A stretch of 64,000 bases of DNA from assembly GCA_049678185.1 (NCBI GenBank), contig JBAUDS010000369.1, positions 354 through 64,353 on the forward strand. Reading direction: 5' to 3'. Below the pieces are notes generated by a model. It ran no database searches. It saw only the letters and a program-made list of their open reading frames with translations, and was not told the DNA's origin. Positions within the stretch are counted from its first letter, which is position 1; every line of letters begins with the position of its first letter. Both the position numbers and the translations under genes were made by a program. This DNA comes from Thermoanaerobaculia bacterium. GTDB taxonomy: Bacteria; Acidobacteriota; Thermoanaerobaculia; Multivoradales; JAHEKO01. This document shows positions 9,724-44,811 of this stretch, piece by piece.

Positions 9724-10503
9724 ATGCCGCTCAGCGGACAGAGACTTCTCACCATCACGACTGCTCTCATCGCTTGCGTTGCGCTTGGCTGCGGCACGGT
9801 CCCGGTGAGCGCCGACTCCACCCCTCTGCCCCTCCAGATCCCCAGGGACCGACCCCTGCGTGCCGGATTCTTGATCGTCGACGGGGTCTACAACACCGAG
9901 CTGACGGCTCCCTACGACGTCTTTCAGCACACCAGTGCACATTTGGGCGCGGGGTCCGGCATCGAAGTTTTTACCGTCTCACCGGATGGAGGCGAGGTGA
10001 CCACCGCCGAGGGACTTCGGATCGTCCCGCACTACAGCTTCGAGACCGCTCCCCCGATCGATATTCTCGTTGTGCCTAGCGGCGAGCACAGCCGGGACGC
10101 CGACAGACAGAACCGGGACCTCATCCAATGGGTGAGCAAGACCGGCGCGCAGGCACACTTTGTCGTCTCCCTGTGTTGGGGAGCCTTTATCTTGGCCGAG
10201 GCCGGACTACTGGACGGCCACTCGTGCACCACCTTCCCCGGTGACTACCGACCCTTCGCCGAGGCCTTTCCCGACCTGGATCTCCGCATCAACGTCACTT
10301 TTGTCCACGACGGCCGCGTGCTGACCTCCGAGGGAGGCGCCCACAGCTACGACGTGGCCATGTACCTGGTGGATCTGCTGTTTGGAGAAGAAGTCGCGAA
10401 GGGGATCGGTCAGGGGTTGCTGATCCCGTGGCCTCCCACCGGCGGTGTACGGCCCGCCTACGTCACCGATCCTGGCATGTCTCTCAAAAGATCGACCGAG
10501 TGA
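9724..10503 (+). CDS. DJ-1/PfpI family protein (class I glutamine amidotransferase-like fold), probably a lipoprotein.
   Basis: Signal peptide with lipobox-like LIACVALGCG. DJ-1/PfpI core (ILVVPSGE...HFVVSLCWGAFILAEAGLLDGHSCTTFP) with the nucleophile-elbow Cys (SLCWGA). Confidence 0.8.
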   Translation: MPLSGQRLLTITTALIACVALGCGTVPVSADSTPLPLQIPRDRPLRAGFLIVDGVYNTELTAPYDVFQHTSAHLGAGSGIEVFTVSPDGGEVTTAEGLRIVPHYSFETAPPIDILVVPSGEHSRDADRQNRDLIQWVSKTGAQAHFVVSLCWGAFILAEAGLLDGHSCTTFPGDYRPFAEAFPDLDLRINVTFVHDGRVLTSEGGAHSYDVAMYLVDLLFGEEVAKGIGQGLLIPWPPTGGVRPAYVTDPGMSLKRSTE

Positions 10504-10598
10504 TGACCGGATTCATCGCCGTCATGTTCATCCTCCCGGTCGCCATCGTCGTCGCGGCGATCGTCCTCGGTCGACGCGCCGGCTCATGGAAGAACTAG
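10503..10598 (+). CDS. Micro-ORF encoding a 31-aa single-TM peptide (MTGFIAVMFILPVAIVVAAIVLGRRAGSWKN). Possible small accessory subunit of the downstream symporter.
   Basis: Its ATG overlaps the DJ-1 stop by 1 nt (TGATG). Its TAG stop lies 10 nt inside the symporter start, in a different frame (ATG 10586). The peptide is a hydrophobic helix followed by a basic tail. Support is positional only. Confidence 0.35.
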   Translation: MTGFIAVMFILPVAIVVAAIVLGRRAGSWKN

Positions 10599-12103
10599 CC
10601 ACAACCGAGGTCGTGCTCGACAGCACGGCCTTGGTGAGTTTTGTCGCCTACCTGGTGGTAGTCGTGGCCATCGGCGTCTATGCCACCCGCTTCGCCTCTT
10701 CGGGACTCGGCGAGTTCTTCGTCGGCGGCCGCCAGATGAACCGCTTCGTCGTCGCCCTCTCGGCGGTGGTGTCCGGACGCAGTGCCTGGCTTCTTCTTGG
10801 TGTCACCGGCATGGCCTACCAGATCGGAGCCTCGGCCGTTTGGGCGGTGACCGGTTACATCGTCGCCGAGCTCCTGATGTTTCTCTACTATGCCGGTCGG
10901 CTGAGAAGGTTTAGCGAGGCCTACGATTGCATCACCATTCCCGACTTTTTCGCCGCTCGGTTCAACGACACATTCGGCGTGCTGCGCATACCGTTGGTGG
11001 CCATCATCCTGGTATTCATGGTGAGCTACGTCGCGGCTCAGTTCGTCGCCGGTGGTAAGGCTTTCACTGCGAGCTTTGGCCTCAGCAACACCAGCGGTCT
11101 TCTGCTGACGGCAGCCATCGTTCTCATCTACACGGTGCTGGGTGGCTTTCTCGCGGTCAGCCTCACCGACGTGCTCCAGGCCCTGTTCATGATCGTGGCT
11201 TTGGTGCTCCTGCCGCTGGTGGCTATCGTAAGTCGGGGTGGGCTGAGGGCCGTAATCGACCAGCTCGCGGCGCTCGACCCGACCATGATCGATCCGTTCA
11301 CCCTGTCGGCGGGTGCTCTTGTCGGCTTTCTCGGTATCGGCCTCGGCTCGCCGGGCAATCCCCACATTCTGGTGCGTTATATGTCGATTCGCGACCCCGA
11401 GCAGCTGCGCTTCTCGGCGGTGGTGGGAACGGTCTGGAACGTGGTGATGGCGTGGGGCGCTCTCTTTATCGGACTCGTGGGCCGGGTCTACTTTCCGATC
11501 CCCGATCTCCTCCCCGCGGGCGATGCCGAGAACCTCTACGTAGCCCTCGCCAGGCAGCAGCTCCACCCGATCCTCCTCGGACTGGTGATTGCGTCCATCT
11601 TTGCCGCCATCATGTCGACCGCCGACTCCCAGCTTCTGGTTGCCGCTTCGAGCATCGTCCGCGACCTCTATCAGAAGGTCTTTCGCCGCGGCCGGGAGTT
11701 GTCCTCTCGGCGGCTGGTGATCTACAGCCGGGTGGTGGTCGTTCTGCTGGTGCTCTTGGCGCTGCTCTTTGGATACCTGGCCCACGACCTGGTCTTCTGG
11801 CTGGTGCTCTTTGCCTGGGCGGGTCTCGGCGCCGCCATCGGTCCCACTTCCATTCTCGCGCTCTACTGGCGCCGGACCACCCGCGCGGGCGTCTTGGCAG
11901 GTCTTCTCGCCGCCACTGCCGTCACCTTCATCTGGCGAGCGGACGATAGTCTCAACGACTCGCTCTATGTGCTCATTCCGGGCTTCTTGGCAGCCTTTGT
12001 GGCGACCGTCGTGGTGAGCCTCGTCACAGAACCGCCGGACGACGCCGATGAGATGCTCGACAGGATGACCGACTCGGGCGAGGGAAAGCGACGCCCGGGG
12101 TGA
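10586..12103 (+). CDS. putP: Sodium:solute symporter family transporter, PutP-like Na+/proline symporter.
   Basis: 505 aa with about 13 TM segments. The SSS-family signature region (GRQMNRFVVALSAVVSGRSAWLLLGVTGMAYQIG) resembles PutP. Confidence 0.75.
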   Translation: MEELATTEVVLDSTALVSFVAYLVVVVAIGVYATRFASSGLGEFFVGGRQMNRFVVALSAVVSGRSAWLLLGVTGMAYQIGASAVWAVTGYIVAELLMFLYYAGRLRRFSEAYDCITIPDFFAARFNDTFGVLRIPLVAIILVFMVSYVAAQFVAGGKAFTASFGLSNTSGLLLTAAIVLIYTVLGGFLAVSLTDVLQALFMIVALVLLPLVAIVSRGGLRAVIDQLAALDPTMIDPFTLSAGALVGFLGIGLGSPGNPHILVRYMSIRDPEQLRFSAVVGTVWNVVMAWGALFIGLVGRVYFPIPDLLPAGDAENLYVALARQQLHPILLGLVIASIFAAIMSTADSQLLVAASSIVRDLYQKVFRRGRELSSRRLVIYSRVVVVLLVLLALLFGYLAHDLVFWLVLFAWAGLGAAIGPTSILALYWRRTTRAGVLAGLLAATAVTFIWRADDSLNDSLYVLIPGFLAAFVATVVVSLVTEPPDDADEMLDRMTDSGEGKRRPG

Positions 12104-12117
12104 TGGGAGACGGGCTA

Positions 12118-13872
12118 CTACCGTTTGGCGAAATAGACTTGCAGGCGTGAGCCCTGCGGCGTCATATCTCGGACATAGACATCGGCGCCGGTAAGGTCGG
12201 CGACAACGTGGAGAACGCTGCCTTGCGGCTCCTTGTGCAAACCCGTGCGAATACGGTCGATGTGCGAGGTTCCCACATCCAAGGCCGATTCGTCCGGAGC
12301 CCGAGTCACGCCATAGACTTTGATGATGACCCGGGCGTCGTCGCCCTCGATACGCGACAGCTCGACCTGCCCTCCAACAACCACGTCATCGGTCCACAGC
12401 ATGAGAAGAGTTTCACCACCCAACTCCTCCCAGGAGATGCGCTCGACACGCGACAGCTTGCTGACAACCGGTACCACTTCTCGCCTCTCCGTCGGTGCCG
12501 GCGCAACCGGCGGCGTCTCCGTCGCGGCCGTCGACGGAGAAGTCGAGTCGACCTGGGCTTCTTCGGCAGCTGACTCTTCAATCGGTGGCAGCGGCTCGAG
12601 CGGGGCAGAGACCTCCACCTCGGACTCGCCCTCGATAAAGGAGGCGACACTGGACGTCAACACCTCGACATACGGCTGGAGCAGACCCATGTAGTAGGCA
12701 TAGCCTGCGGCTCCCGCGAGGATCGCCACTACCAACAACAGGAACAACCCGCGTCCGGATCTCCGCTTCGTGCTGTGGGTTCCCAGCGACGGCTCCGACT
12801 CCGCCATTCCCATGTCGGTCTCGCCGACCGCTCCGGTCTCATCCGGCCACTTCAGGGCACCGGAAGCGACCACCAGCTCATCGGGCACGGGTACGTCGGC
12901 GAGCTCCTCGGTGAACCGGATTTCGGGGACACGGGGAACCGTTGGCGGCGGCTCGAAGCTGGTCGTCGGTGGCGGACTGATCGCAACCGGTTCCTCCCAC
13001 CGAACATCCTCGCTGTCCGTGGGAGCCACATCCATGCCGCCGATCTCCGGCAGCTCCACCCGTGGCGGCTCGGGCAGGGGCGGTTGTGACTCGACAGGCG
13101 GCAGATCCAGGATGGAGATTTCCGGCTCGGCGAACAAAGACTCGGCTGGAGGACCGGCGTCGAGGTCATCGGGCGGCGTGACCAGAGTCGGGGGGCTTAC
13201 CTCATCCACATTCTCAAAGCTCTGTTCCGGCAGTGACGTCGACGGCGGTGGGATCGCAACATCGTAAGGTGGTGTGACCAGGGTCGGGGGACTGGCCTCA
13301 TCCATATCCAACAAGCTCTGATCCGACGGCGGCACGGGTTCCGGTTCGGGTGGCCGTACTTCCTGACGCACGCTCGCTTCGATCTCTGCCAACTCGGGAA
13401 TCTCTTGCTCGAGACCCCCGGTGGCATCCGCTTCGATCTCCACCGGGGCCGCCTCGGTGACTGCGGGAGCCGGTTTTTCGAGAACAAACAGGGTCTCGCC
13501 CTGGCGGCGGTGGCTGTCGACGACCTTGGCCAGCAACCGCTGGCCGGGTTCATCGAGGTCCTGGAAGCGAATCGACATCCCCTCCGGCGACTGACCCGCC
13601 GCGAATTCGCGCACGGCCACTACCTCCGCCTCACCCTGCATGAGCTGAAAGCCGTCGGCAATCCTCAATACGAAGCTGAGTCTCGAGCCCGCGGCCTTGG
13701 GGGTCTGGACCTCGACAAACATGCCCTCCTCGGAGAGGGTCGAGACGCTCAGATTGATGAATTCCCTGAAGCTCGGGTACTCCACGACCAGCTGTCGGTC
13801 GCTGAGAGTCACTACTGGCGCGGCGTTCGAATCACCTGTGGCCATCGGGTTCTCGTTTACCTCTGTCGACAT
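12118..13872 (-). CDS. PilZ-domain membrane protein with a proline-rich tandem-repeat linker, one TM helix and a C-terminal AMIN-like domain.
   Basis: N-terminal PilZ-like fold (VVTLSDRQLVVEYP...NLSVSTLSEEGMFVEV...GMSIRFQDLDEPGQRLLAKVV). A Pro/Glu-rich region with near-identical repeats (EASPPTLVTPPYD / EVSPPTLVTPPDD). A TM segment (LFLLLVVAILAGAAGYAYYMGLL). A C-terminal beta-rich domain resembling AMIN (LLMLWTDDVVVGGQVELSRIEGDDARVIIKVYGV...VLHVVADLTGADVYV). Confidence 0.65.
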   Translation of the reverse strand: MSTEVNENPMATGDSNAAPVVTLSDRQLVVEYPSFREFINLSVSTLSEEGMFVEVQTPKAAGSRLSFVLRIADGFQLMQGEAEVVAVREFAAGQSPEGMSIRFQDLDEPGQRLLAKVVDSHRRQGETLFVLEKPAPAVTEAAPVEIEADATGGLEQEIPELAEIEASVRQEVRPPEPEPVPPSDQSLLDMDEASPPTLVTPPYDVAIPPPSTSLPEQSFENVDEVSPPTLVTPPDDLDAGPPAESLFAEPEISILDLPPVESQPPLPEPPRVELPEIGGMDVAPTDSEDVRWEEPVAISPPPTTSFEPPPTVPRVPEIRFTEELADVPVPDELVVASGALKWPDETGAVGETDMGMAESEPSLGTHSTKRRSGRGLFLLLVVAILAGAAGYAYYMGLLQPYVEVLTSSVASFIEGESEVEVSAPLEPLPPIEESAAEEAQVDSTSPSTAATETPPVAPAPTERREVVPVVSKLSRVERISWEELGGETLLMLWTDDVVVGGQVELSRIEGDDARVIIKVYGVTRAPDESALDVGTSHIDRIRTGLHKEPQGSVLHVVADLTGADVYVRDMTPQGSRLQVYFAKR

Positions 13873-13906: not shown

Positions 13907-14677
13907 TTACCCTCCCCTCACCAGCTCGACGAGGTCCTCGAGGGTTCGCAGCTTGCGATCGGTTGCCACAAAGAGTTGAGCCGCGAATAGAGCCGACGCG
14001 GCGTGAGCCGCCAGAAGGTCCAACAGATCGCGGTCCTCGGAAGTCAAGGACGACTTGTGTTCGAGCAGCTTCAGGATAACCAACGCTCCCATGGTCTTTC
14101 CTTTGATCGCGAGGGGGACCACCGCCAAGGCAAAGGAGCCCTCTTCGGTGATAGTTCGCAGGACACCATCGACGAGGGCCTCGTCGACCATCGGATCACC
14201 GCCCGTGTACTCCGGGCCGGCAAACAGCCCGTCGGCCACGCCTTCGGTTCGCCGCGAGACGGCCACCTCGTAGCCGTCGCTCTCACCACGCCGCAGCAGC
14301 AGGGCGAAGCTGTCGGCGCCAAGGAGCTCGATCGCGATCTCGCCGACCGTCCTCTTGACATCTTCGAGGTCGAGTGTCTCGTGCAGCTCACAGGTGGCAA
14401 CATAGAGACTCATCAACCGTCCGCGCTGGTGCTCGACCTCCACCATTCGATCGGTGGTCTCTTGCAGGTCGCTCTCCGCTTCGGCGAGGCGGCTTCTCAG
14501 CCGTTCGTTCTCGCCACTCACCCCACCCACCTCCTGCCCCACATCGGAGGTCTCCTCTGGCGACCTTGCTTGCACCTCGCGTATCAGTACTACCGCCTTG
14601 TCGATCACCGACTGGAGCTCCGCTACGAGCTCTTCCACCGAAAGGTCGCTGGCAACCCGATGCCGCTCTTCTGCCAA
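13907..14677 (-). CDS. GAF-domain protein with an N-terminal coiled coil.
   Basis: N-terminal heptad-like segment (ERLRSRLAEAESDLQETTDRMVEVEHQRGRL), then a GAF-like domain (LEDVKRTVGEIAIELLGADSFALLLRR...MGALVILKLLEHKSSLTSEDRDLLDLLAAHAASALFAA). TTG start at 14677 with an AGAGGA Shine-Dalgarno. Confidence 0.65.
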   Translation of the reverse strand: MAEERHRVASDLSVEELVAELQSVIDKAVVLIREVQARSPEETSDVGQEVGGVSGENERLRSRLAEAESDLQETTDRMVEVEHQRGRLMSLYVATCELHETLDLEDVKRTVGEIAIELLGADSFALLLRRGESDGYEVAVSRRTEGVADGLFAGPEYTGGDPMVDEALVDGVLRTITEEGSFALAVVPLAIKGKTMGALVILKLLEHKSSLTSEDRDLLDLLAAHAASALFAAQLFVATDRKLRTLEDLVELVRGG

Positions 14678-14690: not shown

Positions 14691-15068
14691 TTATTCAGAC
14701 GCCACGGGTTGAATCCGTTCGATGAGCTTCAGAATCTCTTCGTTGCGAAAGGGCTTCTTGATGTACGCAGCCGCACCGGCCTCGAGCCCTCGCACCGTGT
14801 CCTGATCTTTGCCTTCGGTGCTGACGATAATCACCGGCACTTCGTTGAAGGCCTCACTCCCCTTGACCTCATCGAGAAACTCGAAGCCATTCATACTTGG
14901 CATATTTATGTCCAGCAGGATGAGATCGATGTCCGGGTGCTCGTGAAGGCGCTCGAGACCCTCCCTGCCGTCCATCGCGTGCACCAGGGCATAGGATCGG
15001 AGCATCACCTCGAACATCTTGTGAATCAACTTCGAGTCGTCGACAACAAGCACTTTCTTTGGCTGCAC
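14691..15068 (-). CDS. CheY-like single-domain response regulator (receiver domain only).
   Basis: KKVLVVDDS...DLILLDINMPSMNGFEFL...VPVIIVSTEG...AAYIKKPF carries all the receiver hallmarks. The chosen GTG start at 15068 gives 125 aa and has an AGGAG Shine-Dalgarno 10 nt upstream. The ORF track extends it to an upstream ATG at 15176, which is also possible. Confidence 0.75.
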   Translation of the reverse strand: MQPKKVLVVDDSKLIHKMFEVMLRSYALVHAMDGREGLERLHEHPDIDLILLDINMPSMNGFEFLDEVKGSEAFNEVPVIIVSTEGKDQDTVRGLEAGAAAYIKKPFRNEEILKLIERIQPVASE

Positions 15069-15234
15069 TGGCCTCGAGCTCCTATCTGAAACGAATCGCT
15101 GATCCCCTGGGGCGCGGGAATGAGTTGTGGGCACCATTCCCACCCGAGCGTAGCCGATCCTGCGACCTGCGTACAATCTCCTCTTTCACAGCACCCTACG
15201 GCACGACCCGGCCTCCAACCAGTGGTCTAGTTCA

Positions 15235-15319: not shown

Positions 15320-16900
15320 GTGAACGACCTCACCAAAGAGCTTCTCGAAGACTTCCGCCTCGAGTCTAGAGAACGAATAGATCGGGTCGAGGATGGACTC
15401 CTGACTCTGGCCGGCGCTGCCCATCCGGAGCGACAGCCGCTGGTGTTGAAGGTGCGTTTGGAGCTCCACACACTCAAGGGCAACTCGGGAATGATGGGGT
15501 TCGACGACCTGCAGGCTCTGGCTCACGAGCTCGAGGACGAGATCGATCGGATCGACCTCGATCAGCCGGATCTCGGGCCCTTTCTCACCGGGCTCGATCG
15601 CATGAGAACCCGCGTCGAGGAGCTGGCGGCACCAGGCCCTCATTCGGACGCGACCGATTCCACTGAAACCACGATCACTGCAACGGAGAGCGGACAATCG
15701 GTTCGCGACAGTGTACGCGTCCCTGCCGACAAGCTCGATTCACTGGTGGATGCGGTCGCCGAGTCGCTCATCGCCCGCAACCGACTGACCGCCAGCGTCG
15801 AGCTCGGGCTCGAGCTCGACGTCACCGACGACGACTACATCACGTCTTCTGTCCACACCTGGGGCCAGGTCCAGGAAGCTCTACACTCGCTGAGCAAAGA
15901 GCTCGAAGCCATACAGGAACAGACACTCCGGCTACGGATGGTTCCTTTGAGCACGCTCTTCGGCAAACTCAAGCGCCTCGTTCACGACGAGGCCCTCAAG
16001 TCCGGCAAGGAGGCGCGCCTTACCACCCAGGGGGGTGAGACGACTGTCGACAAGGCGCTGGCGGATTTTGCCGGGGATGCCCTGGGCCATCTGGTTCGCA
16101 ATGCAGTCCACCATGGCATCGAGACGCCGAAGAGTCGGCAGCGTTCCGGCAAGTCTCCTTGCGGCACCATCCACCTCGCCGCCGCGGTGGTCTCGGGGAT
16201 GGTAGAGATCGACCTGCTCGACGACGGCGCCGGCATCGATCACTCGGCCCTGCTCGCAGCCGCGCGCCGCCACGGTCTGGACGCAGGTGACGACGAGGAT
16301 CTCCGCTCACTCGTCTTCCAAACCGGAATCTCCACCCGGACCCAGACCGACCTGAGCGCTGGTCGGGGAGTTGGACTGGCTGCTGTCCGCAATGCCGCTC
16401 ATCTCCTGGGGGGATCGATCGATCTGGCAAGCGAGAAGGACCTCGGTACCCACTTCCGCCTCCGCCTCCCGACCCAAGCTTCGATTACCCAAGCACTCCT
16501 GGTGAGGGTCGACAGCGAAAGATACGCCCTGCCGGTGATGTCCGTCGTCGACACCCTGGCGCTTGCCGGAAGCTCGGACGGGCTTGCACCCAGTGCCGGG
16601 CAAATGGACTGGAGAGGGAGAGGTCTCGATCTACTCGATCTGGGACAGGGCTTTGGCACCTCGGAGAGCAGACGCCGGCACGGCCACGTCGTGGTAGTGG
16701 CGGCGGAAGGGAGCGAGCGCGGGCTGATCGTGGATGAAATCGAGGGCATCCACCAGATCGTCGTCAAGCAGCTCGATCGGCTCGTCGCCGGGGTACAGGG
16801 CATCTCCGGCTCGACGATTCTCGGCGACGGTCGCGTCGTCATGATCCTCGACGCCGCCGATCTCGCAACACTGCCTCTACCGGAAGCGCAGCCATCATGA
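15320..16900 (+). CDS. cheA: Chemotaxis histidine kinase CheA (P1-P3-P4-P5; no recognisable P2 domain).
   Basis: HPt domain with the phospho-His context (LHTLKGNSGMMGF). Dimerisation segment. HATPase_c (HLVRNAVHHGIE...DDGAGID...GRGVGLAAV). C-terminal CheW-like domain. GTG start. Confidence 0.9.
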   Translation: MNDLTKELLEDFRLESRERIDRVEDGLLTLAGAAHPERQPLVLKVRLELHTLKGNSGMMGFDDLQALAHELEDEIDRIDLDQPDLGPFLTGLDRMRTRVEELAAPGPHSDATDSTETTITATESGQSVRDSVRVPADKLDSLVDAVAESLIARNRLTASVELGLELDVTDDDYITSSVHTWGQVQEALHSLSKELEAIQEQTLRLRMVPLSTLFGKLKRLVHDEALKSGKEARLTTQGGETTVDKALADFAGDALGHLVRNAVHHGIETPKSRQRSGKSPCGTIHLAAAVVSGMVEIDLLDDGAGIDHSALLAAARRHGLDAGDDEDLRSLVFQTGISTRTQTDLSAGRGVGLAAVRNAAHLLGGSIDLASEKDLGTHFRLRLPTQASITQALLVRVDSERYALPVMSVVDTLALAGSSDGLAPSAGQMDWRGRGLDLLDLGQGFGTSESRRRHGHVVVVAAEGSERGLIVDEIEGIHQIVVKQLDRLVAGVQGISGSTILGDGRVVMILDAADLATLPLPEAQPS

Positions 16901-17496
16901 GCAAACAATCCGGAGAGACCGAAAACGGGACGCAGGAGCTGCCGCAGTCCGGTCTCAAGGACGAGGTCCTGAACCGCGACGAGGATGATCGCCCTGGGCT
17001 CCTCTATCGTTTCGCCGACAGTCTGCGTAGCGGCGACGAGGAACAAGAAAAACCGGAAGAACCCGAGATCTGGCTGGTCTTTCGCCTCGGGGAGAGCTCC
17101 TTCGGTCTGCCGGTCGCCGATATACGGGAGGTCATGCGTGTCGGCGCCATCACCCGTGTGCCTCAGGCACCTTTTGCGGTTACGGGTGTCACCGACCTCC
17201 GTGGTCGCGTCATACCGATCGTCGATCTCGGAGCACGTTTCGACCTCGACCCCGTCGAGGTCGACGAGCAGAGTCGCATTGTCGTGCTCGATGCCGAAGG
17301 CCGACTGATCGGCCTTCTCGTGGACGCCGTCGATCGGGTAGGCCGCATCCTCCCCAGTCAGAAGGAAGACCCGGACCCGGGCGCCGACGGCCAGCCCGCC
17401 GCTGTTGTAGCTCTCTATTCGTGGGAAGACGAGCAGTTGAGGCTCCTCGACGTCGAGGAGCTGCTCTCGATCGACGAGACCCATGAAGGGCCCTAG
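16897..17496 (+). CDS. cheW: Chemotaxis coupling protein CheW.
   Basis: CheW domain (WLVFRLGESSFGLPVADIREVMRV...VIPIVDLGARF...RIVVLD...IGLLVDAV). Its ATG overlaps the cheA TGA by 4 nt. Confidence 0.85.
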   Translation: MSKQSGETENGTQELPQSGLKDEVLNRDEDDRPGLLYRFADSLRSGDEEQEKPEEPEIWLVFRLGESSFGLPVADIREVMRVGAITRVPQAPFAVTGVTDLRGRVIPIVDLGARFDLDPVEVDEQSRIVVLDAEGRLIGLLVDAVDRVGRILPSQKEDPDPGADGQPAAVVALYSWEDEQLRLLDVEELLSIDETHEGP

Positions 17497-17511
17497 TAGG
17501 GGATTGGACCG

Positions 17512-19467
17512 ATGCTCAAGAATCTGAAGTTCCGCCACAAGATGATTCTCCTACCGGTACTGGCCGGTATCGGATTCCTGCTCGTTCTCGCTCTTCTCGC
17601 CCGTAGCGCGCAGAAGAACGAGCTGTTCATGAAACGGATCGAGGCCGGGCACTTCGCCGCCTTGGAGCTCGCCCAGACCCTGACCGTCGACCTGGCCGTT
17701 CTCGAGCGGAGCTTCGAAGATGCTCTCGATTCGAACGACCCGAGCACCCTCGCACAAGCCGAAGAGCTGCGCGGCGTCTTTCTGCGCAATCTGCAGATCG
17801 GCGACGAGCTCGCGGTCCTCGACCCGGTAGGCCTGGAGAAACTGGAGACTGATTTCGAGAACTACTACGAGATCGCCCGCATCACCACGCTGCAAGCGAT
17901 GGATGCCGCCGTGGGTGCAGCTTCGCCTCCGGACTCGAGCCGCGGTGCTCAAGCCCATGAGAGCGTTCGGCACCAGATCGAGGCCCTGTCCGCCGAGCAG
18001 GCTCGCGAGATGCACCAGGCCTTTGCCTCGGTGCAGGAGAACATCAGGGCAACCAAGGTCGACATGACGGTTGTCATCGCCGTTTGGCTGGTGCTGCTCA
18101 TGTCCTTGGCGCTGGTGGTGATGTTTTCGGTGACGCGGCCGATGGAGCAGGCGGTGCGTGTGGCCGACCGTCTGGCGGAGGGCGACGTGGAAGTGGACAT
18201 CACGGTCGATTCCCGCGACGAAGCCGGTCTTCTCTTGCGCTCGATGAAGGACACGGTCAGCTACCTCCAGGAGATGGCCACGGTTGCCGACAGCATTGCC
18301 GAGGGAGATCTTGCGGTCGAGGTCGAGCCACATTCCGATCGCGATCGGCTGGGCAACTCCTTTCTCAAGATGTCCCACAACCTGCGCAAAATGATCGGCG
18401 ACCTCAAGGCGGCCTCCGACCAGGTCCTGACTTCCGGCAACGAGATCTCGACATCCGCCGTCGAGATTTCCCAGGGTGCCGAAAGTCAGTCCTCGGCCAC
18501 CGAAGAGACGTCTTCGACGATGGTGGAGATCGCCACCCAGATCGAAAGCGTCGCCAAATCGACACAGGCCCTGGCCACCAACGTCGAAGAGACCTCGTCC
18601 TCCATCCTGGAGATGGGTGCATCGATCGACGAGACCGCCAAGAACTCCGACAGCTTGATGACGGCGGTCGACGAGACCTCCGCCACCATCGAGGAGATGA
18701 TCGCTTCCATCCACTCCATCGCCGACAAGGTGAAGGTCGTAGACAAGGTCTCGCGCGAGGCCGCCGAGTTGGCGGAGAGCGGCGGCACCGAGCTCTCGGA
18801 GATCATCGAGGGCATCGGCACATCGAGCGCCGACATTGGCAAGATCGTCCAGATCATCGAGGAGATCGCCGACCAGACCAATCTGCTGGCTCTCAACGCC
18901 GCCATCGAGGCGGCGCGGGCCGGTGACGCCGGGCGTGGTTTCGCCGTCGTCGCCGAAGAGGTCAGGCGCCTGGCCGAGCGGTCGGTGGAGTCGAGCCGCG
19001 AAATCTCCGAGATGGTCGAGTCGGTCCAGAACGACACCCTTCAGGCTGTCGAGGTCACGCGCAAGATCCTCCGCCAGATCATCGACTCGGTGAGCGAGGC
19101 CACTGCCCTCGTCGGCGACGTCTCCCTGGCCACCCAGGAGCAGAGCGACGGAGCGGCACAGATCCTCGAAACTTCGAGCCATATGCAGGACACGACTCGA
19201 CAGCTGGCCTCCGCCGCCGCCGAGCAGGCTCGCAGCACCGGGGACATCCTGCGGGCGGTGGAGTCGATGAATCAGATGACCCAGCAGGTCGCCGAAGCCG
19301 GTTACGAGCAAAAACGAGGCGGCGACATCGTGGTGAAAGCGGTCGAGCACATCGCCGAGATCGCCAATCAGAATCTCGCCGCCAGCTCTCAGCTGTCGCA
19401 GGCGACCGTAAGTCTGACCAAAGAGGCCAAACGGCTGCAGCTGATGTCCAATATCTTCAAGCTCTGA
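17512..19467 (+). CDS. Methyl-accepting chemotaxis protein with two TM segments and HAMP domains.
   Basis: Two TM segments, HAMP linker(s) ([22 protein letters not shown]...; [20 protein letters not shown]), and the highly conserved MCP signalling domain ([36 protein letters not shown]). Confidence 0.9.
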
Positions 19468-19482
19468 GGAAGGGATGGCTCG

Positions 19483-21390
19483 ATGACAAAGAAAAACCCC
19501 TCCTCCGGTACCGCTCTCAGCTGGGAGGAGTGCATGGAGTTGCTCGAGAAGCTCCCCTCGCTGTCCCTCGAGGAACGGGCAGAGGCGATAGAAGCCCTGG
19601 TGCGCAACCCGAGCCCCGGAGTGCGGGGGCAGGCCCTCCAGGTCGGTGCCGCGATCTTGCCCGAGGAAACGCTGATCGAGTACATGCGGAGCGACTCCGA
19701 TGCCGTGCATCGCAACGCGGCTACCGAGATTCTCAAGATCCGAGGAAGTCGCAGTTTTCACCTGGCGGTCGAGTTGCTGGAAGACGAGGACCCCGACGTC
19801 GTGCTCCAGGCGGTTCTAATTCTCGATCACCTCAAAGACCCACGGGCTTTCGAGGCCCTGCGCGGGGCGCTTCACCACAGCGATCCCAATGTCGCCCAGT
19901 CCGCCATCGTCGCCGTCGGTCGTCTCGGTGATGCCAGGGCCATTCCCGACCTCCTACCTTTCCTGGAGAGCGATACCTGGCTTCGTGTCGCCGCGATTCA
20001 GGCCCTGGGTGACATCCGCTCGCCGGCCGCTGTCGAGCCGCTGAGCCCGCTGCTGACCGATCTGATGAGCGGGCCGATGGTCATCGAGGCTCTCGCCAGG
20101 ATTGGTGGCGAGGAGGCCTATCGGGCGCTCAGCGACCACTGGCTGCGCTTTCAAGACGAGTTGGACACCGAGACTGCTATCGGCTTTCTGGCCCACGTTG
20201 TCGAGGGTCTGCCCGAGCCTCCGCCACCCCGTCCCGAGCTCCGGTTGAGTCTGGCCGAGCGCCTGCGCGACCCCTACCGCGCGGTGCGACTCTCGGCCGC
20301 TCGCTGTCTGCTGGCACTGGGACCGGGGGCCGAGGACGCCGAGGCTCTCCACCTGCTCGCCGACTCTCTGCGCGAGGGGCCCACCATCCTGCCCAGCTGT
20401 CTCGCCCAGCGAACCGACCTCGCCGACACGCTCCTCGAAAGATCGGGCGCCTGGCGATTCTGGGGCTTCCTCTCCGCCGCCAAGCACCCGGGCTCCGCCT
20501 CCCCCGAGTCCCTGGCGCGCGCTCTGACCCGCGACGAGCCGGTGGAGTCTCTCGAAGCCATCATCGAGGCTCTGCGGGACGTCAAAAGCCCGGTCGTGGC
20601 AAATGCGCTATTGGATTTCTACCTGGGCCTTCCCGTCGAAGAGCGGGCCGGGCTCGAGCCGATCCTGGAGGAGCAGAGCGACCATCTCTCGGGCGTTTTG
20701 AAGCAGAGGAAAGATCTGCCGGAGACCGAGAGGCTGGTTGTACAAGCCCTGCTGGGGGAGCCGGCCGAGGGCATCGTGGCCCGCATCGTCGAGCTCGAAC
20801 CCGCGGAGCGGGTCGAGGTGATCTCGCGCCTCGGAGGTCATCCGGAGATCGTGCGTCAGCTACCGTGGCCGACATGGCTCGAGGAAGATCCCGAGCGCTA
20901 CGCCGAGCTGGCGGCACAGTCGGCGATCGCCTCCGGCTCGCGGGAGTTGTTACCGACGCTTCGATCTCTGCTCGAGCGTTTTCCCTTGCCCGATCTCGTT
21001 AGGGCCGCCGGTGAGCTTGGCGATCGCAAAGCGGTGCCGACTCTCATCAAACTTCTCGATGCCAAGAAGCCGCTCGTCTTCGTGCTCATTATCGAGAACC
21101 TGGGCAAGATCGGGGGGCCGGATGCCCGACACCATCTGCAGACCCTGGCCTCCGAAGAGGATGAGAAGATCGCCCGCCTCGCCTACAAGGCGCTGGCCTC
21201 GTGCGCCACCGAAGAAGACGATGAGTTTTTTCGCCAGGCCATCGATCACCAGGATTGGCTCGTCCGCCTCGCCTGCGTCGAAGTTCTCGGACGCTTCACC
21301 CGTCAGGAGAACATGGCAGCGCTGGCCCAATTGGCAGCCGACCCGGTTGCCGCGGTAGCCGAGCGCGCGGCCGCGGCACTGGAGGGATGA
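19483..21390 (+). CDS. HEAT-repeat (PBS-lyase-like) protein encoded inside the che operon.
   Basis: Repeated DPxVRxxAxxALGxIGDxRAV-type units (e.g. DPDVVLQAVLILDHLKDPRAFEAL; DPNVAQSAIVAVGRLGDARAIPDLL; DTWLRVAAIQALGDIRSPAAVEPL; RAAGELGDRKAVPTLIKLL). Confidence 0.7.
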   Translation: MTKKNPSSGTALSWEECMELLEKLPSLSLEERAEAIEALVRNPSPGVRGQALQVGAAILPEETLIEYMRSDSDAVHRNAATEILKIRGSRSFHLAVELLEDEDPDVVLQAVLILDHLKDPRAFEALRGALHHSDPNVAQSAIVAVGRLGDARAIPDLLPFLESDTWLRVAAIQALGDIRSPAAVEPLSPLLTDLMSGPMVIEALARIGGEEAYRALSDHWLRFQDELDTETAIGFLAHVVEGLPEPPPPRPELRLSLAERLRDPYRAVRLSAARCLLALGPGAEDAEALHLLADSLREGPTILPSCLAQRTDLADTLLERSGAWRFWGFLSAAKHPGSASPESLARALTRDEPVESLEAIIEALRDVKSPVVANALLDFYLGLPVEERAGLEPILEEQSDHLSGVLKQRKDLPETERLVVQALLGEPAEGIVARIVELEPAERVEVISRLGGHPEIVRQLPWPTWLEEDPERYAELAAQSAIASGSRELLPTLRSLLERFPLPDLVRAAGELGDRKAVPTLIKLLDAKKPLVFVLIIENLGKIGGPDARHHLQTLASEEDEKIARLAYKALASCATEEDDEFFRQAIDHQDWLVRLACVEVLGRFTRQENMAALAQLAADPVAAVAERAAAALEG

Positions 21391-21397
21391 GGCACCG

Positions 21398-22240
21398 GTG
21401 ACGACACCTCCCGTGACGATGACCTATGAGGAGTTCCAGCTCCTCAACGAGTTCATCTCCGACCTCATCGGGGTCAGCTTCCCCGCGGAGAGGGGCCGTT
21501 TGCTCGAATCCCGTCTGCGGCCCCGTGTCCAAGCGCTGCATCTGCCCCGGTTCATGGACTACTACTTTGTGCTCCAGTACGACATCGATAGCGAGGCCGA
21601 GCACCTCATGCACGCCGTCACCAACAATGAGACCTACTTTTTTCGCGAGACCCGCCAGTTCGAGGCTCTGTTCGATGAAGTGATCGGAGACCTCAAGGCA
21701 GAGGCCGTGACGCCAGGAACCATCCGGCTCCTCTGCGCCGGCTGCTCCTCGGGAGAAGAGCCCTACACCATCCGCATGTTCGGCGAGGAGAACCCCAACC
21801 CCGACGGCGAGTCGATGCTGCAAATCGACGCCATCGACATCGACCTGGAGCGCCTCGAGGCCGGCAGGACGGCGGAGTACGGGCCCAATTCCCTGCGCAG
21901 CACCAGCGAGACCCAGATCCAGAGCTACTTCAGCCGCAGCGGCAGCAATCGATTCAAACTCCTGCCGCATCTGCGGGTAGGAGTTCGCTTCTCCTACGGC
22001 AACATTCTGGATCTCGACTCCTATCCCAGCCTGGTCTCCTACGACGCGGTCTTCTGCAGGAATGTCTTGATCTACTTTTCGGAGGCGGCCCTCCACCGCG
22101 CCCTCGACAGCTTCGCCCGCGCCCTGCGCCCGGGAGGCCTACTTTTCCTGGGCCACTCCGAGTCGATCATCGGCGTCACACCGCAATTCGAGCCAGTCAG
22201 ACTCAGGAAGTGCATCGTCTACCGAAAGACCGGCGAGTGA
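21398..22240 (+). CDS. cheR: Chemotaxis protein methyltransferase CheR.
   Basis: N-terminal CheR helical domain plus SAM-dependent MTase (ETYFFRE...IRLLCAGCSSGEEPYTI...VFCRNVLIYFS). GTG start. Confidence 0.9.
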   Translation: MTTPPVTMTYEEFQLLNEFISDLIGVSFPAERGRLLESRLRPRVQALHLPRFMDYYFVLQYDIDSEAEHLMHAVTNNETYFFRETRQFEALFDEVIGDLKAEAVTPGTIRLLCAGCSSGEEPYTIRMFGEENPNPDGESMLQIDAIDIDLERLEAGRTAEYGPNSLRSTSETQIQSYFSRSGSNRFKLLPHLRVGVRFSYGNILDLDSYPSLVSYDAVFCRNVLIYFSEAALHRALDSFARALRPGGLLFLGHSESIIGVTPQFEPVRLRKCIVYRKTGE

Positions 22241-23313
22241 AGAAGATCCGCGTCGCCGTTGTGGACGACTCCTCCTTCATGCGCAAGGCGGTGGTGCGCA
22301 TGCTGGCGCCGGAGCCGCGCATCGTGGTCGTGGGTACCGCGGCCTCGGGTGAGGAGCTGCTGACACAGCTCGATACCTGGCAGCCCGATGTCGTCACCCT
22401 CGATCTCTTCATGCCCGGGATGGGTGGTCTGCGGACCCTCGATCGCATCATGGAGCGCAAACCGCTGCCGGTGATTCTCCTGTCGAGCCATTCGAGAGAG
22501 CGGGCGCCGCTGACCATCGAAGCACTGCACCGCGGCGCGGTCGACTTCATCGACAAGCAGCGCTACTCACTGGTGGATTTTCAAGCCCTGGGCAGGGTCC
22601 TGATCGACAAGATACTCCTGGTCACCGGGGCGCATGTCCATCCCCCGGACAGAGGCGCACACACAGGCGCACCAGAGGAGCACACGGGACCCGAAAGGCG
22701 GGCGCATCCCCGCGTGAGAAGCCCGCAGGCCACCCGAGCCCCTGCCTACGACCTCCTGCTGATGGGAGCCTCCACCGGCGGACCGGTGGCGATCCGCGAG
22801 ATCCTGGAGGACCTGGGTACCGATCTGCGGGTACCGGCAGTGGTGGTTCAGCACATGCCCAAAGGTTTTACCAGGGCTTTTGCCGAGCGGCTCAACAGCC
22901 AGCTACCGGTGCCGGTGCTCGAGGTCCTGGGCAGAGAGCCCCTGCTGCCTTCGACGATCTACATAGCACCTGCCGAGCGCCACCTGGTGATCCGCGGACG
23001 CCCTGGAGAGTTGACCGTCGTCGCCACCAGCGATCCCGACGACGTCACCCACCGACCCTCGGTCGATGTCCTCTTCTCCTCCGCAGCCAGCATCCCCGAG
23101 CTGCGGGTTGTCGGCCTGCTGCTCACCGGGATGGGGAGCGACGGCGCCAAGGGGATGAAGGAACTGGCCGGCGCCGGCGCCTTCACCCTGGCCCAAGACG
23201 CCGATACCTCGATTGTCTACGGCATGCCACGGGCCGCCGCCGAGCTCGGGGCCGCCCACGAGATCCTGCCGCTCGGCCAGATCGCCGCCCGGCTAAGAGA
23301 TTTAATTGGGTGA
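22236..23313 (+). CDS. cheB: Protein-glutamate methylesterase CheB (receiver domain plus CheB methylesterase).
   Basis: Receiver (KKIRVAVVDDSSFMR...VVTLDLFMPGMGG) plus methylesterase (LLLMGASTGGPVAIREIL...VVVQHMPKGFTRAFAERLN...GMGSDGAKGMKEL). A GTG at 22236 overlaps the cheR TGA (GTGA). An in-frame ATG at 22210 is an alternative start. Confidence 0.85.
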
Positions 23314-35008: not shown

Positions 35009-35896
35009 ATGAAACCGGCTCCCTTCGACTACACGGCGCCAGACTCGCTCGCGGGTGCCCTCGCTCTCCTCGGCGAGCACGGGTACGACGCCAAGCTGCT
35101 GGCCGGTGGTCAGAGTCTGGTGCCGTTGCTCAACTTTCGATTGGCCAAACCGTCGCTGCTGATCGATCTCAACCGGCTCTCCGATCTCGACTATGTCCGG
35201 CCTAGCGACGACGGCGGCTTACGGATTGGTGCGCTGACCCGGCAACGACGTCTCGAGCGGGATCCATTGGTGGCCGAGTGCGCCCCCCTGCTCCATGAGA
35301 CGGTCCCCTTCATCGCCCACCCCCAGATCCGCAACCGCGGCACCGTCGGCGGCAGCCTCGTCCACGCCGACCCCGCCGCCGAGCTGCCGGTGGCCGCGGT
35401 GGCGCTGGAGGCCCGCTTCCGGCTCCAGAGCGCCCGCGGCGAGCGCTGGGTCGCCGCTGAGGACTTCTTTGTCAGCCTCTTCACCACCGACCTGGCTCCC
35501 GAGGAGATGCTGGTGGAGGTGGAGATCCCGCCCTCACCGCCGCGGACCGGTTGGTGCTTTATGGAGATCTCCCGCCGTCTGGGCGACTATGCCCAGGCCG
35601 GGGTGGCAGCTGGAATCACGCTCGACGAGAACGGCGCCTGCGGCCGGGCCAGACTCGTCTACTTGAGCGCCGGAGACGTGCCGGTGGTGGCGTCCGAGGC
35701 AGCGCGGGTACTCGAGACCGACGGCCTCGGCGAGGAGTCGATCCGCGCGGCGGCCGAAGTGGTGGCCGCCAAGGAAGTCGAGCCCACCGATGACATCCAT
35801 GCCACGGCCGCCTTCAAGCGGCACCTTTTCCATGTGCTGACGCGGCGCGCCGTCGCCACCGCGGCCGAGCGTGCCGCCAACGGGGGGCAAGCATGA
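35009..35896 (+). CDS. Molybdenum hydroxylase (xanthine dehydrogenase / CO-dehydrogenase family) FAD-binding subunit (CoxM/CutM-like).
   Basis: FAD-binding-5 domain (LLAGGQSLVPLLNFRLAKPSLLIDL...IRNRGTVGGSLVHADPAAELP) and CO-dehydrogenase flavoprotein C-terminal domain. Confidence 0.85.
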   Translation: MKPAPFDYTAPDSLAGALALLGEHGYDAKLLAGGQSLVPLLNFRLAKPSLLIDLNRLSDLDYVRPSDDGGLRIGALTRQRRLERDPLVAECAPLLHETVPFIAHPQIRNRGTVGGSLVHADPAAELPVAAVALEARFRLQSARGERWVAAEDFFVSLFTTDLAPEEMLVEVEIPPSPPRTGWCFMEISRRLGDYAQAGVAAGITLDENGACGRARLVYLSAGDVPVVASEAARVLETDGLGEESIRAAAEVVAAKEVEPTDDIHATAAFKRHLFHVLTRRAVATAAERAANGGQA

Positions 35897-36375
35897 CCAG
35901 CGTGGAGGTCACGGTCAACGGCAAGCGGTACAGCCGCACCGTCGAGCCACGGCTGCTGTTGAGCGACTTTCTCCGTCACGAGCTGGGTCTGACCGGCACC
36001 CATGTCGGCTGTGAGCATGGCGTCTGCGGTGCCTGTACGGTGCTGCTCGACGGCGAGCCGGTCCGCTCCTGTCTGTTGCTGGCGGTCCAGGTCGATAGTC
36101 ACGAGCTGAAGACGGTCGAGGGTCTCGCCGAGAGCATGGACCAGCTACACCCGCTGCAGGAGGCCTTCCGCGAAGCCCACGGGCTGCAGTGTGGCTTCTG
36201 CACCGCCGGCATCCTCATGACGCTGGAGCCGTTCTTGGAGGACAACCGGGAACCGTCGGAGGAGGAGATCCGTCACGCGCTGTCGGGCAACCTCTGCCGC
36301 TGCACCGGCTACCAGCACATCGTCGACGCGGTGAAGCTGGCGGCCGAGAAGATGGGATCGCCATCGGAGAGATGA
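35893..36375 (+). CDS. Molybdenum hydroxylase (2Fe-2S)-binding small subunit (CoxS-like).
   Basis: Plant-type ferredoxin Cys cluster (GCEHGVCGACTV) plus second cluster (CGFCTAG...CRCTGY). Its ATG overlaps the FAD-subunit stop (ATGA). Confidence 0.9.
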   Translation: MTSVEVTVNGKRYSRTVEPRLLLSDFLRHELGLTGTHVGCEHGVCGACTVLLDGEPVRSCLLLAVQVDSHELKTVEGLAESMDQLHPLQEAFREAHGLQCGFCTAGILMTLEPFLEDNREPSEEEIRHALSGNLCRCTGYQHIVDAVKLAAEKMGSPSER

Positions 36376-37685
36376 TCGACGACCGCGACACCCGACCGAT
36401 CGCGCGCGCGGCGCTGACCGCCGAAGCGCGCGACCTGCTCGGCACCCTCGACCTGCTGGAGAACCACTTCGCGCGCGAGGAGCCGCCGATCCAGGCCTTT
36501 GTTCCTGAAGAGGATCGTTTCGCGCGGCTCCGCCGGGACGCCGAAGAGCTCTTTACCCGGTTCCCGAGCTCCGAGGAGAGGCCACCCCTGTTTGGGGTTG
36601 CCATCGGCATCAAGGACATCTTTCATGTCGAGGGGCTGCCCACCCGCGCCGGATCCGACCTACCCGTGGAAGAGCTCGCGGGTGACGAGGCCGACTGCGT
36701 CACCGCGCTCAAGGGGGCAGGCGCCCTGGTGCTGGGCAAGACGGTGACCACCGAGTTCGCCTACTTCGCCCCCGGCCCGACCCGCAATCCGCGCCATCTC
36801 GAGCACACACCGGGTGGCTCGAGCTCCGGGTCGGCGGCGGCGGTGGCCGCCGGGCTCTGCCCGCTGGCCCTGGGCACTCAGACCATCGGCTCCATCTCGC
36901 GCCCGGCCTCCTACTGCGGCATCGTTGGTTTCAAACCGAGCTACGACCGGATCTCGCGCCAAGGGGTCATACCGTTGTCCCCCTCGCTCGATCACATAGG
37001 GATCCTGGCGGCCGATGTCGAGCTCGCCACCCGCGTGGCCGGGCTGCTCTGCAGCGATTGGCAAGAGAGTCGTCGGTCGTCGGTCGCCGGCCGTCGGCCG
37101 GTGTTGGGGATTCCCGAGGGGCCCTACCTCGAGCACGCCTCGGCCAAGGGTCTCGAGCATTTCAGACGCACCTGCAAGCTCCTGGAGGATGCCGGCTACA
37201 TGGTCCGGTCGGTGATGACCCTGGCCGATTTCCCGGTGGTCCAGGAACGGCATCTCACCATCATGGCCGCCGAGGCGGCGCAGGTGCACGCAGAGTGGTA
37301 CAAGCGATTCTGGGAGCTCTATGACACCCGAACCCGCGATCTCATCGAGCGAGGGACGGGGATCTTGGCCGCAAAATTGGAGGAGGCGCTGGCCGGCCGC
37401 CAGCGACTGCAGTCCGAGCTGGCCGACATCGCCGCCGCCAACGAGATCGATCTCTGGATCTCGCCAGCAGCCACCGGACCGGCACCGGCGGGTCTGGAGT
37501 CGACCGGGGACCCGATCATGAGTCTGCCCTGGAGCCAGGCCGGGTTGCCGACCGTCTGTCTGCCGACCGGGGACACCCTTTCGGGAATGCCGATGGGCCT
37601 CCAGGTGGCGGCCGGTTGGTATCAGGACGAGGAGCTGCTGGCATGGGCCGCTGAGATGGAGGAGGTGCTCGAGCCCGATGACTAG
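36372..37685 (+). CDS. Amidase-signature (AS) family amidase.
   Basis: GGSSSGSAAAVAAG Gly/Ser-rich AS motif. Catalytic Lys context (GIKDIF) and Ser-cisSer-Lys triad region. Its ATG overlaps the 2Fe-2S subunit stop (ATGA). Confidence 0.85.
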   Translation: MIDDRDTRPIARAALTAEARDLLGTLDLLENHFAREEPPIQAFVPEEDRFARLRRDAEELFTRFPSSEERPPLFGVAIGIKDIFHVEGLPTRAGSDLPVEELAGDEADCVTALKGAGALVLGKTVTTEFAYFAPGPTRNPRHLEHTPGGSSSGSAAAVAAGLCPLALGTQTIGSISRPASYCGIVGFKPSYDRISRQGVIPLSPSLDHIGILAADVELATRVAGLLCSDWQESRRSSVAGRRPVLGIPEGPYLEHASAKGLEHFRRTCKLLEDAGYMVRSVMTLADFPVVQERHLTIMAAEAAQVHAEWYKRFWELYDTRTRDLIERGTGILAAKLEEALAGRQRLQSELADIAAANEIDLWISPAATGPAPAGLESTGDPIMSLPWSQAGLPTVCLPTGDTLSGMPMGLQVAAGWYQDEELLAWAAEMEEVLEPDD

Positions 37686-40604: not shown

Positions 40605-40612
40605 GAGCCGAT

Positions 40613-42967: not shown

Positions 42968-43332
42968 TCGCCGCCTTCGCTGCTCTTCATCTCCACCAAG
43001 ATCAGATCGATCGGTCCGTCCCCCACGTTCGCGGGCAGGTGGTCCCCGGCCGGGGTCCAGATCGCCTCTTTGCCCTTGTTCTCCACCTCCTGGGTCGAGC
43101 CATCGGCCATCGTGAACTGGACCATCTGGTCGGTCAAGAAGACGGCCACACTGTCTGGGTGGTAGTGCATCACCGACTTCTCACCCACGCCATAGGTGAT
43201 CCGCAATACCCGCACTTCGTCATTCTCGAACACCACCTTGTAGTGATCGGGGTCGACCTTGGTCGGGTCTTCCCCCGCCGACAAGGGCGCTACCGCCAGC
43301 AGAAGACACAGCATCATCAGACATCTACGCAT
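42964..43332 (-). CDS. Secreted cupin-domain protein (122 aa).
   Basis: Signal peptide (MRRCLMMLCLLLAVAPLSA) plus small cupin barrel (HYKVVFENDEVRVLRITYGVGEKSVMHYHPDSVAVFLTD). GGAGG Shine-Dalgarno 7 nt before the ATG at 43332. The upstream extension in the ORF track was rejected. Confidence 0.65.
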   Translation of the reverse strand: MRRCLMMLCLLLAVAPLSAGEDPTKVDPDHYKVVFENDEVRVLRITYGVGEKSVMHYHPDSVAVFLTDQMVQFTMADGSTQEVENKGKEAIWTPAGDHLPANVGDGPIDLILVEMKSSEGGD

Positions 43333-43447
43333 AGCAAACCTCCATTGCGACTCGAGCCGCGCTGCCGCGAGCTCATTCTCTGTTCGTGCGAAACTGCCGC
43401 GCATCCTACCACCAAGAAAGGGCGCTTGGGATAGGATTCGGGCCATC

Positions 43448-44803: not shown

Positions 44804-44811
44804 AGGTAGAG

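Follow-up and report, generated by a model that had tools for sequence, protein, structure and literature searches.

Introduction

In Alg44, the alginate co-polymerase of Pseudomonas aeruginosa, a cytoplasmic N-terminal PilZ domain is followed by one transmembrane (TM) helix and a periplasmic domain. The polar landmark proteins FimV and HubP bind peptidoglycan with a periplasmic domain, cross the membrane with one TM helix and recruit chemosensory and motility proteins through a very acidic cytoplasmic region that bears repeats. Canonical PilZ receptors for c-di-GMP (cyclic dimeric GMP) require two sequence motifs, RxxxR and (D/N)xSxxG. Here we analyze a gene whose predicted product joins a PilZ-like domain to an AMIN-like domain across the membrane. 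The gene lies at positions 12118-13872 on the minus strand of a 64,000-nucleotide stretch of DNA from a Thermoanaerobaculia bacterium (contig JBAUDS010000369.1 of assembly GCA_049678185.1, positions 354 to 64,353), which we refer to as the window. We propose, with a probability of roughly 0.45, that the protein is a peptidoglycan-anchored, c-di-GMP-blind scaffold that localizes the output of a chemosensory (Che) system.

Alg44 is listed as a PilZ-domain receptor in a review (PMC10519070). It shares with the window protein the layout of PilZ domain, one TM helix and periplasmic domain. It differs in its intact motifs, which bind c-di-GMP, its membrane-fusion-protein-like periplasmic domain, the absence of a long disordered linker and its place in a polysaccharide operon, whereas the periplasmic domain of the window protein has an AMIN fold and its gene is neighbored by Che, GAF and transporter genes. 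FimV and HubP follow a logic similar to that of the window protein, in design only: they carry LysM in place of AMIN, run in the opposite orientation and have a FimV C-terminal motif instead of a PilZ domain. Neither LysM nor the FimV C-terminal motif has a Pfam or NCBIfam match in the window protein, and no homology to FimV or HubP was detected.

The AMIN domain is the classical septal-targeting domain of AmiC (PMC2572700; structure 4bin). Compared with AmiC of Escherichia coli and the PilQ secretins of Myxococcus xanthus and Neisseria meningitidis, the AMIN-fold domain is here placed at the C-terminus of an inner-membrane protein and is joined to neither an amidase nor a secretin module. FliO proteins with an AMIN domain, found in Campylobacterota and others, are bitopic: their cytoplasmic part is a small beta domain, and their AMIN domain, on the periplasmic side, is the proposed envelope anchor (PMC12403147). 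FliO thus resembles the window protein in being bitopic, in residing in the inner membrane and in having its AMIN domain in the periplasm; it differs in that the AMIN domain is N-terminal (the opposite orientation), the cytoplasmic domain is unrelated and the protein belongs to the flagellar export apparatus.

Results

Predicted architecture of the protein

The gene is a single open reading frame (ORF) of 584 amino acids plus stop codon in the ORF list of the window; its true start may instead be M10 (13843-13845), which is the start position of most orthologues. Sequence search and alignment identified nine orthologues that are 60-98% identical to the window protein and colinear with it from end to end. 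The most informative name among them, 'PilZ domain-containing protein', belongs to an orthologue from a Thermoanaerobaculia metagenome-assembled genome (MAG). An earlier note on this DNA had read the protein as a PilZ-like domain, a linker, a TM helix and an AMIN-like domain, and this order proved correct by Pfam, hydropathy, an AlphaFold2 (AF2) model and fold comparison. In the model, a PilZ barrel is followed by a disordered linker, a TM helix and an all-beta C-terminal domain. We therefore read the product as a bitopic inner-membrane protein, predicted to consist of a cytoplasmic PilZ-fold domain, an acidic Pro-rich linker, a TM helix with its N-terminus inside, a flexible periplasmic spacer and, at the C-terminus, an AMIN-fold domain.

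The single TM helix spans residues 373-398 (12679-12756, minus strand, as are all parts of the gene), has a hydropathy peak of 2.1, is modeled by AF2 as a helix at residues 373-394 and is invariant across the orthologues. Because four basic residues (in KRRSGR) flank it on its N-side, the N-terminus is predicted to be cytoplasmic and the C-terminus to lie outside. In line with this orientation, the median number of Lys and Arg residues among 100 family members is three before the helix and one after it, and the C-terminal domain is predicted to be extracytoplasmic. The adjoining periplasmic segment (residues 399-465, 12478-12678) begins with a conserved helix at residues 399-414 and continues as a spacer rich in Pro, Glu and Ser, as judged by composition, AF2 and alignment.

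The PilZ-like domain lacks both c-di-GMP-binding motifs

Residues 20-125 (13498-13815) are predicted to form the cytoplasmic PilZ-like beta-barrel. Profile searches of this end of the protein returned a Pfam PilZ (PF07238) match at residues 43-116, above threshold at 27.1 bits against a cut-off of 22.5, and an NCBIfam TIGR02266 match at residues 27-119 (E=1.3e-14) that, at 54.1 bits, stays under its cut-off of 68.7. AF2 models residues 20-125 with a predicted local distance difference test (pLDDT) score of 80-90 as the six-stranded beta-barrel of the PilZ fold, and Foldseek places it closest, among PDB structures, to the Xanthomonas PilZ proteins XAC1133/XC1028 (7lkm, 4fou, 3dsg and 3cnr; probability 1.00), with target-normalised TM-scores of 0.55-0.63. 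The closest solved structures, from Xanthomonas and Pseudomonas (XAC1133, XC1028 and PA2960), are likewise without a functional c-di-GMP site, and the PDB title of one Xanthomonas neighbor speaks of 'trivial c-di-GMP binding activity'. XAC1133, XC1028 and PA2960 are protein-protein adaptors of FimX and PilB. Unlike the window protein, with which they share 13-17% identity, they are free-standing proteins of ~110 amino acids; no PilB or FimX gene lies near the window gene, and a link to pili is conjecture.

Motif analysis found RxxxR neither in the window protein nor in any orthologue. In place of (D/N)xSxxG we observed TLSEEG, in which S and G are kept and Thr occupies the D/N position in every orthologue. 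Across 84 members of the wider family described below, RxxxR is present in 28, both motifs are intact in 25 and neither is found in 46. Since 25 members keep both motifs, the family ancestor probably bound c-di-GMP as a true receptor, with the window lineage a degenerate adaptor. The best reading of the window PilZ domain is accordingly that of a putative c-di-GMP-blind adaptor, as the earlier note had supposed from its degenerate RxxxR; the loss in fact extends to both motifs, and the nearest folds are those of Xanthomonas PilZ proteins with trivial binding.

It is very improbable that the protein is still a c-di-GMP receptor, in which the PilZ domain would bind the ligand in a non-canonical manner and the signal would cross the membrane to the periplasmic domain as in Alg44. 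The Pfam match above threshold, the preserved S and G, the probable binding by the ancestor and the Alg44-like order of PilZ, TM helix and periplasmic domain all fit such a receptor. Yet RxxxR is wholly missing, the Pfam match starts at profile position 27 and covers positions 27-98 only, thereby skipping the N-terminal arginine motif, the Thr substitution is shared by every orthologue, and the nearest solved folds are non-binding. Moreover, deeper Che-linked relatives encode a small, motif-intact PilZ protein downstream, which suggests that any nucleotide sensing would fall to a different protein.

The C-terminal domain has an AMIN-like fold

The periplasmic domain comprises residues 466-584 (12121-12477). 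An AF2 model built from an alignment of diverse homologues is all-beta with a pLDDT of 94.8, and it displays the beta-sandwich fold of AMIN domains; the likeness is visible by fold comparison only, and identity to the AMIN domains of AmiC and PilQ is 9-14%. Six of 42 diverse homologous C-domains match Pfam AMIN (PF11741), the best with E=1.8e-5. The earlier note's term 'AMIN-like' is thus right for the modeled fold, and membership in the family is borderline at the sequence level: some homologues match the Pfam profile and the window sequence itself does not.

The linker carries conserved islands and an old repeat

The cytoplasmic linker (residues 126-372, 12757-13497) is acidic and Pro-rich and is disordered in the AF2 model (pLDDT <50). 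Its 247 residues, of which 20% are Pro and 22% Asp or Glu, agree with the earlier description of a Pro/Glu-rich linker of roughly 250 residues, and its net charge is -44. Embedded in it are short motifs that the alignment of orthologues reveals as invariant: EIPELAEIEASVR, the DQSF..VDE.SP.TLVTPPDD units, DVRWEEPVAISP and PVPDELVVASGALKWPDETGAVGE. The first of these, island i (EIPELAEIEASVR, residues 157-169, 13366-13404), is nearly invariant and contains a short AF2 helix at residues 162-167. Island v (PEIRFTEEL.D.PVPDELVVASGALKWPDETGAVGE, residues 316-351, 12820-12927) lies just upstream of the TM helix, with invariant columns 328-343. Because it holds several invariant islands, the linker must be more than a spacer; judged from the alignment, its motifs are under purifying selection.

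The island motifs are confined to the orthologue group of the window gene, save for two islands that also occur in a fragment (P0010): the EIPELAEIEASVR motif was found only in orthologues, and the island v motif in the orthologue group and P0010. Every informative locus of the island-bearing orthologues is Che-linked. An EIPELAEIE motif looked similar to the peptide with which the FliM N-terminus binds CheY; we set this likeness aside, as it is out of register and speculation only.

Two tandem units of 32 amino acids (96 nucleotides) follow island i: repeat unit 1 (DQSLLDMDEASPPTLVTPPYDVAIPPPSTSLP, residues 184-215, 13228-13323) and repeat unit 2 (EQSFENVDEVSPPTLVTPPDDLDAGPPAESLF, residues 216-247, 13132-13227). 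They had been described as near-identical at the DNA level and attributed to recent duplication or slippage, and neither description holds. The units are identical at 60 of 96 nucleotides and 18 of 32 amino acids, the best ungapped alignment of their DNA reaches 79% over 58 nucleotides, and Tandem Repeats Finder reported no array in the gene. Ten codons differ synonymously between the units, and five differences fall in a 27-nucleotide core that encodes the identical peptide SPPTLVTPP. This synonymous divergence around an identical peptide core indicates that the duplication is old and that the core was kept by selection. Copy number does vary among orthologues, as had been suggested for comparison: we found one unit in P0003, two in most orthologues and a partial third in P0007.

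The gene is part of a conserved chemosensory operon

The window gene is the third and last of a co-directional set. It is preceded by a gene for a single-domain CheY-like receiver (14691-15068, minus strand; 125 amino acids as in orthologues; Pfam Response_reg, E=6.5e-26), which in the mechanically derived ORF list extends to 15176, and by a gene for a 256-residue coiled-coil and GAF protein (13907-14677, minus strand; Pfam GAF_2/GAF), with intergenic gaps of 13 and 34 nucleotides, the latter directly upstream of the window gene. This set is divergent from a Che cluster (15320-23313, plus strand; Pfam and NCBIfam) that encodes CheA, CheW, a methyl-accepting chemotaxis protein (MCP), a HEAT-repeat protein similar to NblB/CpcE, CheR and CheB.

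The arrangement recurs, with the GAF gene syntenic at loci L001-L004, L050, L101 and L106. At L002, L003 and L050, the CheY-GAF-target order lies beside Che genes (CheA/CheW/MCP), and L004 retains GAF-target. L001 also has the CheY-GAF-target order, interrupted ahead of the target by a PATAN/GAF gene, and shows no Che genes within view. Further loci were reached via GAF homologues of ~55% identity. Among these, L101 and L106 contain the full Che/HEAT cluster and an operon that encodes CheY, GAF and PATAN proteins, a protein of ~800 residues and a solo PilZ protein of 105 or 106 residues. The ~800-residue protein is itself a motif-degenerate member with PilZ, linker, TM helix and AMIN domain that is 27-34% identical to the window protein. 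Immediately downstream of its gene lies that of the solo PilZ protein (L101:11904-12221, L106:13018-13338), in which both motifs are intact (RRSVKRQARR...NVSPTG). The ~550-residue proteins with an N-terminal PATAN (PatA_N) domain are encoded after CheY and GAF (L001:1586-3247, L101:7849-9510, L106:8888-10534). Genes further downstream also correspond to those of the window, with DJ-1 in L101 and L106 and an SSF symporter in L106, and the same Che cluster adjoins the operon in L002, L003, L101, L103 and L106.

Because the operon is shared with a homologue that is only 27-34% identical, the Che linkage must be ancient; L101 and L106, with their homologue of ~30% identity, overturned the idea that it is confined to the narrow orthologue group of the window gene. 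In the window, only 14 nucleotides separate the stop codon of the gene from the convergent symporter gene, and this version of the operon appears to have lost both the PATAN gene and the solo PilZ gene. The conserved operon beside a Che cluster fits the chemosensory input that the earlier note had envisaged.

The gene context (CheA, CheW, MCP, NblB/CpcE-like HEAT protein, CheR and CheB, with PATAN in relatives) resembles that of the M. xanthus Che7-type and cyanobacterial Tax-type systems. We take the neighboring cluster to be akin to M. xanthus Che7 on gene content alone, and we know of no PilZ-AMIN protein described for Che7-type or Tax-type systems. The HEAT-repeat protein itself has 635 residues (19483-21390, plus strand), lies between MCP and CheR and finds its best NCBIfam match in NblB/CpcE-type lyase repeats; this arrangement resembles the Che7 cluster of M. 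xanthus, which includes the HEAT protein Cpc7.

The architecture and synteny described above would also suit an outside-in sensor. Its AMIN domain would read the condition of the wall, such as glycan denuded at division, and its TM helix would relay this to the cytoplasmic PilZ domain and linker, so that the protein feeds the Che/GAF pathway rather than receiving from it. The conserved helix at residues 399-414, just outside the membrane, and the TM segment that is invariant in orthologues are consistent with such a relay. We consider this direction of signaling quite improbable, as a single-pass protein with disordered linkers of 247 and 67 residues would make a poor conformational relay, and the Che cluster already includes an MCP of its own, which has a HAMP domain.

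The protein belongs to a large family with two recurring contexts

We built a C-domain profile from the close orthologues and compared it with 1.84 billion representative proteins. At E<=1e-3 it found at least 560 proteins (50%-identity clusters) that carry the C-domain, with the match at the C-terminus in nearly every case. Among 158 family proteins, 101 combine the PilZ-like N-domain with the C-domain, and in 97 of these a TM helix lies in between; the other proteins are mostly short fragments. The cytoplasmic linkers range from 44 to 509 residues and are uniformly Pro-rich and acidic. Two C-domain motifs were turned by hand into a degenerate DNA pattern, which was run on GTDB species genomes and is blind to subfamilies with another spacing between these motifs. 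It matched 96 stretches, nearly all from MAGs of Thermoanaerobaculia or other Acidobacteriota, and nearly every one proved to be a true C-domain. A word-indexed search with the C-domain profile yielded mostly fragments.

These data leave next to no chance that the gene is an artefact of fusion or assembly, or a decaying gene with a slippage-prone repeat. Its low-complexity linker and the repeat copy number that differs among orthologues might raise that suspicion. The same full-length gene is, however, found in independent JGI, ENA, NCBI and Logan assemblies, and the orthologues with their invariant linker islands, the joint retention of both end domains in the family and the divergence of the repeats at synonymous sites refute it. 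The earlier note, which had asked whether the two ends might be separate genes elsewhere, called the architecture unusual. This holds against the literature we searched, in which the PilZ-AMIN combination, the size of the family and its two recurring contexts are undescribed and the sole paper with both terms is unrelated; it does not hold within Thermoanaerobaculia, where the family is large and conserved. Public annotation reads only 'PilZ domain-containing' or 'hypothetical'. New is the presence of PilZ and AMIN on one membrane-spanning protein, whereas each domain, the PilZ-TM-periplasmic order (Alg44) and the AMIN-anchored bitopic protein (FliO) were known.

A neighbor-joining tree combined with context mapping divides the family into four groups. 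Members of the first have both motifs (RxxxR and NISPGG) and are encoded directly upstream of Amidase_3 and actin-like genes; members of the second, with NVSATG, are encoded directly downstream of the amidase/actin-like pair; degenerate members of the third are convergent with an alcohol dehydrogenase gene; and the fourth consists of the Che-linked orthologues of the window gene. In ~34 of 93 family loci (for example L039, L005, L012, L046 and L097), a distant paralogue lies directly beside an Amidase_3 gene and/or a MamK/MreB-like actin gene on the same strand, with both present in 29 loci. At L039 (5120-7191), the Amidase_3 protein is TM-anchored, AmiC/CwlD-like and without an AMIN match, and the accompanying actin-like protein matches NCBIfam MamK with E=7e-111 and 370 bits, just under the cut-off of 400. 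The paralogues upstream of the amidase/actin pair keep both c-di-GMP motifs. To us, the amidase loci look like a 'split AmiC', in which the AMIN domain would be supplied in trans. Some MAGs of Thermoanaerobaculia/Acidobacteriota also encode two tandem family members on the same strand, at L010 (5535-6785 and 6844-7998) and L036 (2-1285 and 1134-3209).

The amidase-linked paralogues, together with the classical septal role of AMIN in AmiC, raise the alternative that the window protein is a wall-remodelling or cell-separation factor, in which AMIN would direct a peptidoglycan amidase to the septum or regulate it there, as inferred for these paralogues, and the Che neighborhood would be secondary. 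This is rather unlikely. The window copy and its orthologues are never found beside amidase or actin genes and have the conserved CheY-GAF context instead; no Amidase_3 or MamK-like match exists in the 64-kb window; and the amidase-linked paralogues, unlike the window protein, mostly keep both motifs or at least the second.

Other features of the window

The genes at 35009-44803 (plus strand) look like a purine or oxamate catabolism cluster, with xanthine-dehydrogenase-type FAD and molybdopterin subunits, an amidase, a CoA-ligase-like protein, AllG (oxamate carbamoyltransferase subunit) and a xanthine/uracil permease. At 47331-57248, genes for TPR, VWA, Big_7, FG-GAP/ASPIC and VIT-VWA proteins are clustered, among them a zf-HC2 protein (53111-54331) that is a possible anti-sigma factor. 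AT skews of -0.27 at 10001-12000 and -0.21 at 44001-46000 coincide with the plus-strand SSF symporter and xanthine/uracil permease genes and probably reflect T-rich hydrophobic codons rather than a replication feature. The mechanical ORF starts of 10445-12103 (plus strand) and 14691-15176 (minus strand) are probably too far upstream: orthologue calls give 509-510 residues against 552 for the symporter and 125 against 161 for CheY.

Discussion

The proposed scaffold would work as follows. The AMIN domain would fix the protein at a defined site of the envelope by binding peptidoglycan, probably that of the wall at the septum or new pole, by analogy with AmiC and PilQ (PMC2572700, PMC10653833) and with the AMIN envelope anchor of FliO (PMC12403147). 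The PilZ-like domain and the linker motifs would act as docking sites and not as a nucleotide sensor. These sites may recruit or release the soluble outputs of the neighboring pathway: phosphorylated CheY, the GAF protein and also, where relatives encode it, the PATAN protein. A Che system of the 'alternative cellular function' type would thereby be given a place in the cell, which could serve cell polarity or a polar machine, type IV pili being one example. In cyanobacteria, the polarity of the pilus motor is under the control of PATAN regulators and Che-like systems, and PATAN steers the pilus motor in Synechocystis (10.1101/2021.06.11.447907, PMC11181946). This precedent, along with nearest PilZ structures that are PilB adaptors, suggests a role in pilus polarity only indirectly.

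Several observations weigh against the proposal. The scaffold mechanism is drawn from domain precedent and synteny. The C-domain of the window protein has no Pfam AMIN match at E<=1, and its profile returned nothing meaningful among PDB sequences. The PATAN gene and the solo PilZ gene of relatives have no match in the window. The window ORFs scanned also include no recognized gene for a pilus, a secretin or another envelope machine, and the coupling to a type IV pilus secretin that the earlier note had envisaged is not supported. Most family members lie in other contexts, beside amidase/MamK or alcohol dehydrogenase genes. Finally, CheY-GAF-PATAN occurs without any PilZ-AMIN gene at L102, L103/L104 and L105 (at L102 and L105 also without the Che cluster), which would make the scaffold an accessory partner of that module.

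We also put forward a broader idea, which we hold as tentative and, on balance, doubtful: that the PilZ-linker-TM-AMIN proteins constitute an unrecognised class of peptidoglycan-anchored transmembrane signaling scaffolds in Thermoanaerobaculia. Its motif-intact members would make septal wall hydrolysis c-di-GMP-dependent, providing AMIN in trans to the amidase together with a MamK-like actin, and its degenerate members, the window protein among them, would have been re-used as a fixed polar or septal docking site for a Che-like pathway (CheY-GAF-PATAN), by which chemosensory output would be tied directly to a position on the cell wall.

If the scaffold proposal for the window protein is true, it would show how a Che system in a largely uncultured class obtains a wall address and how a second-messenger receptor domain can be converted into a pure adaptor. 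The paralogues encoded beside an amidase in which no AMIN domain was detected and a MamK-type actin suggest, in turn, a link between c-di-GMP and cell separation.

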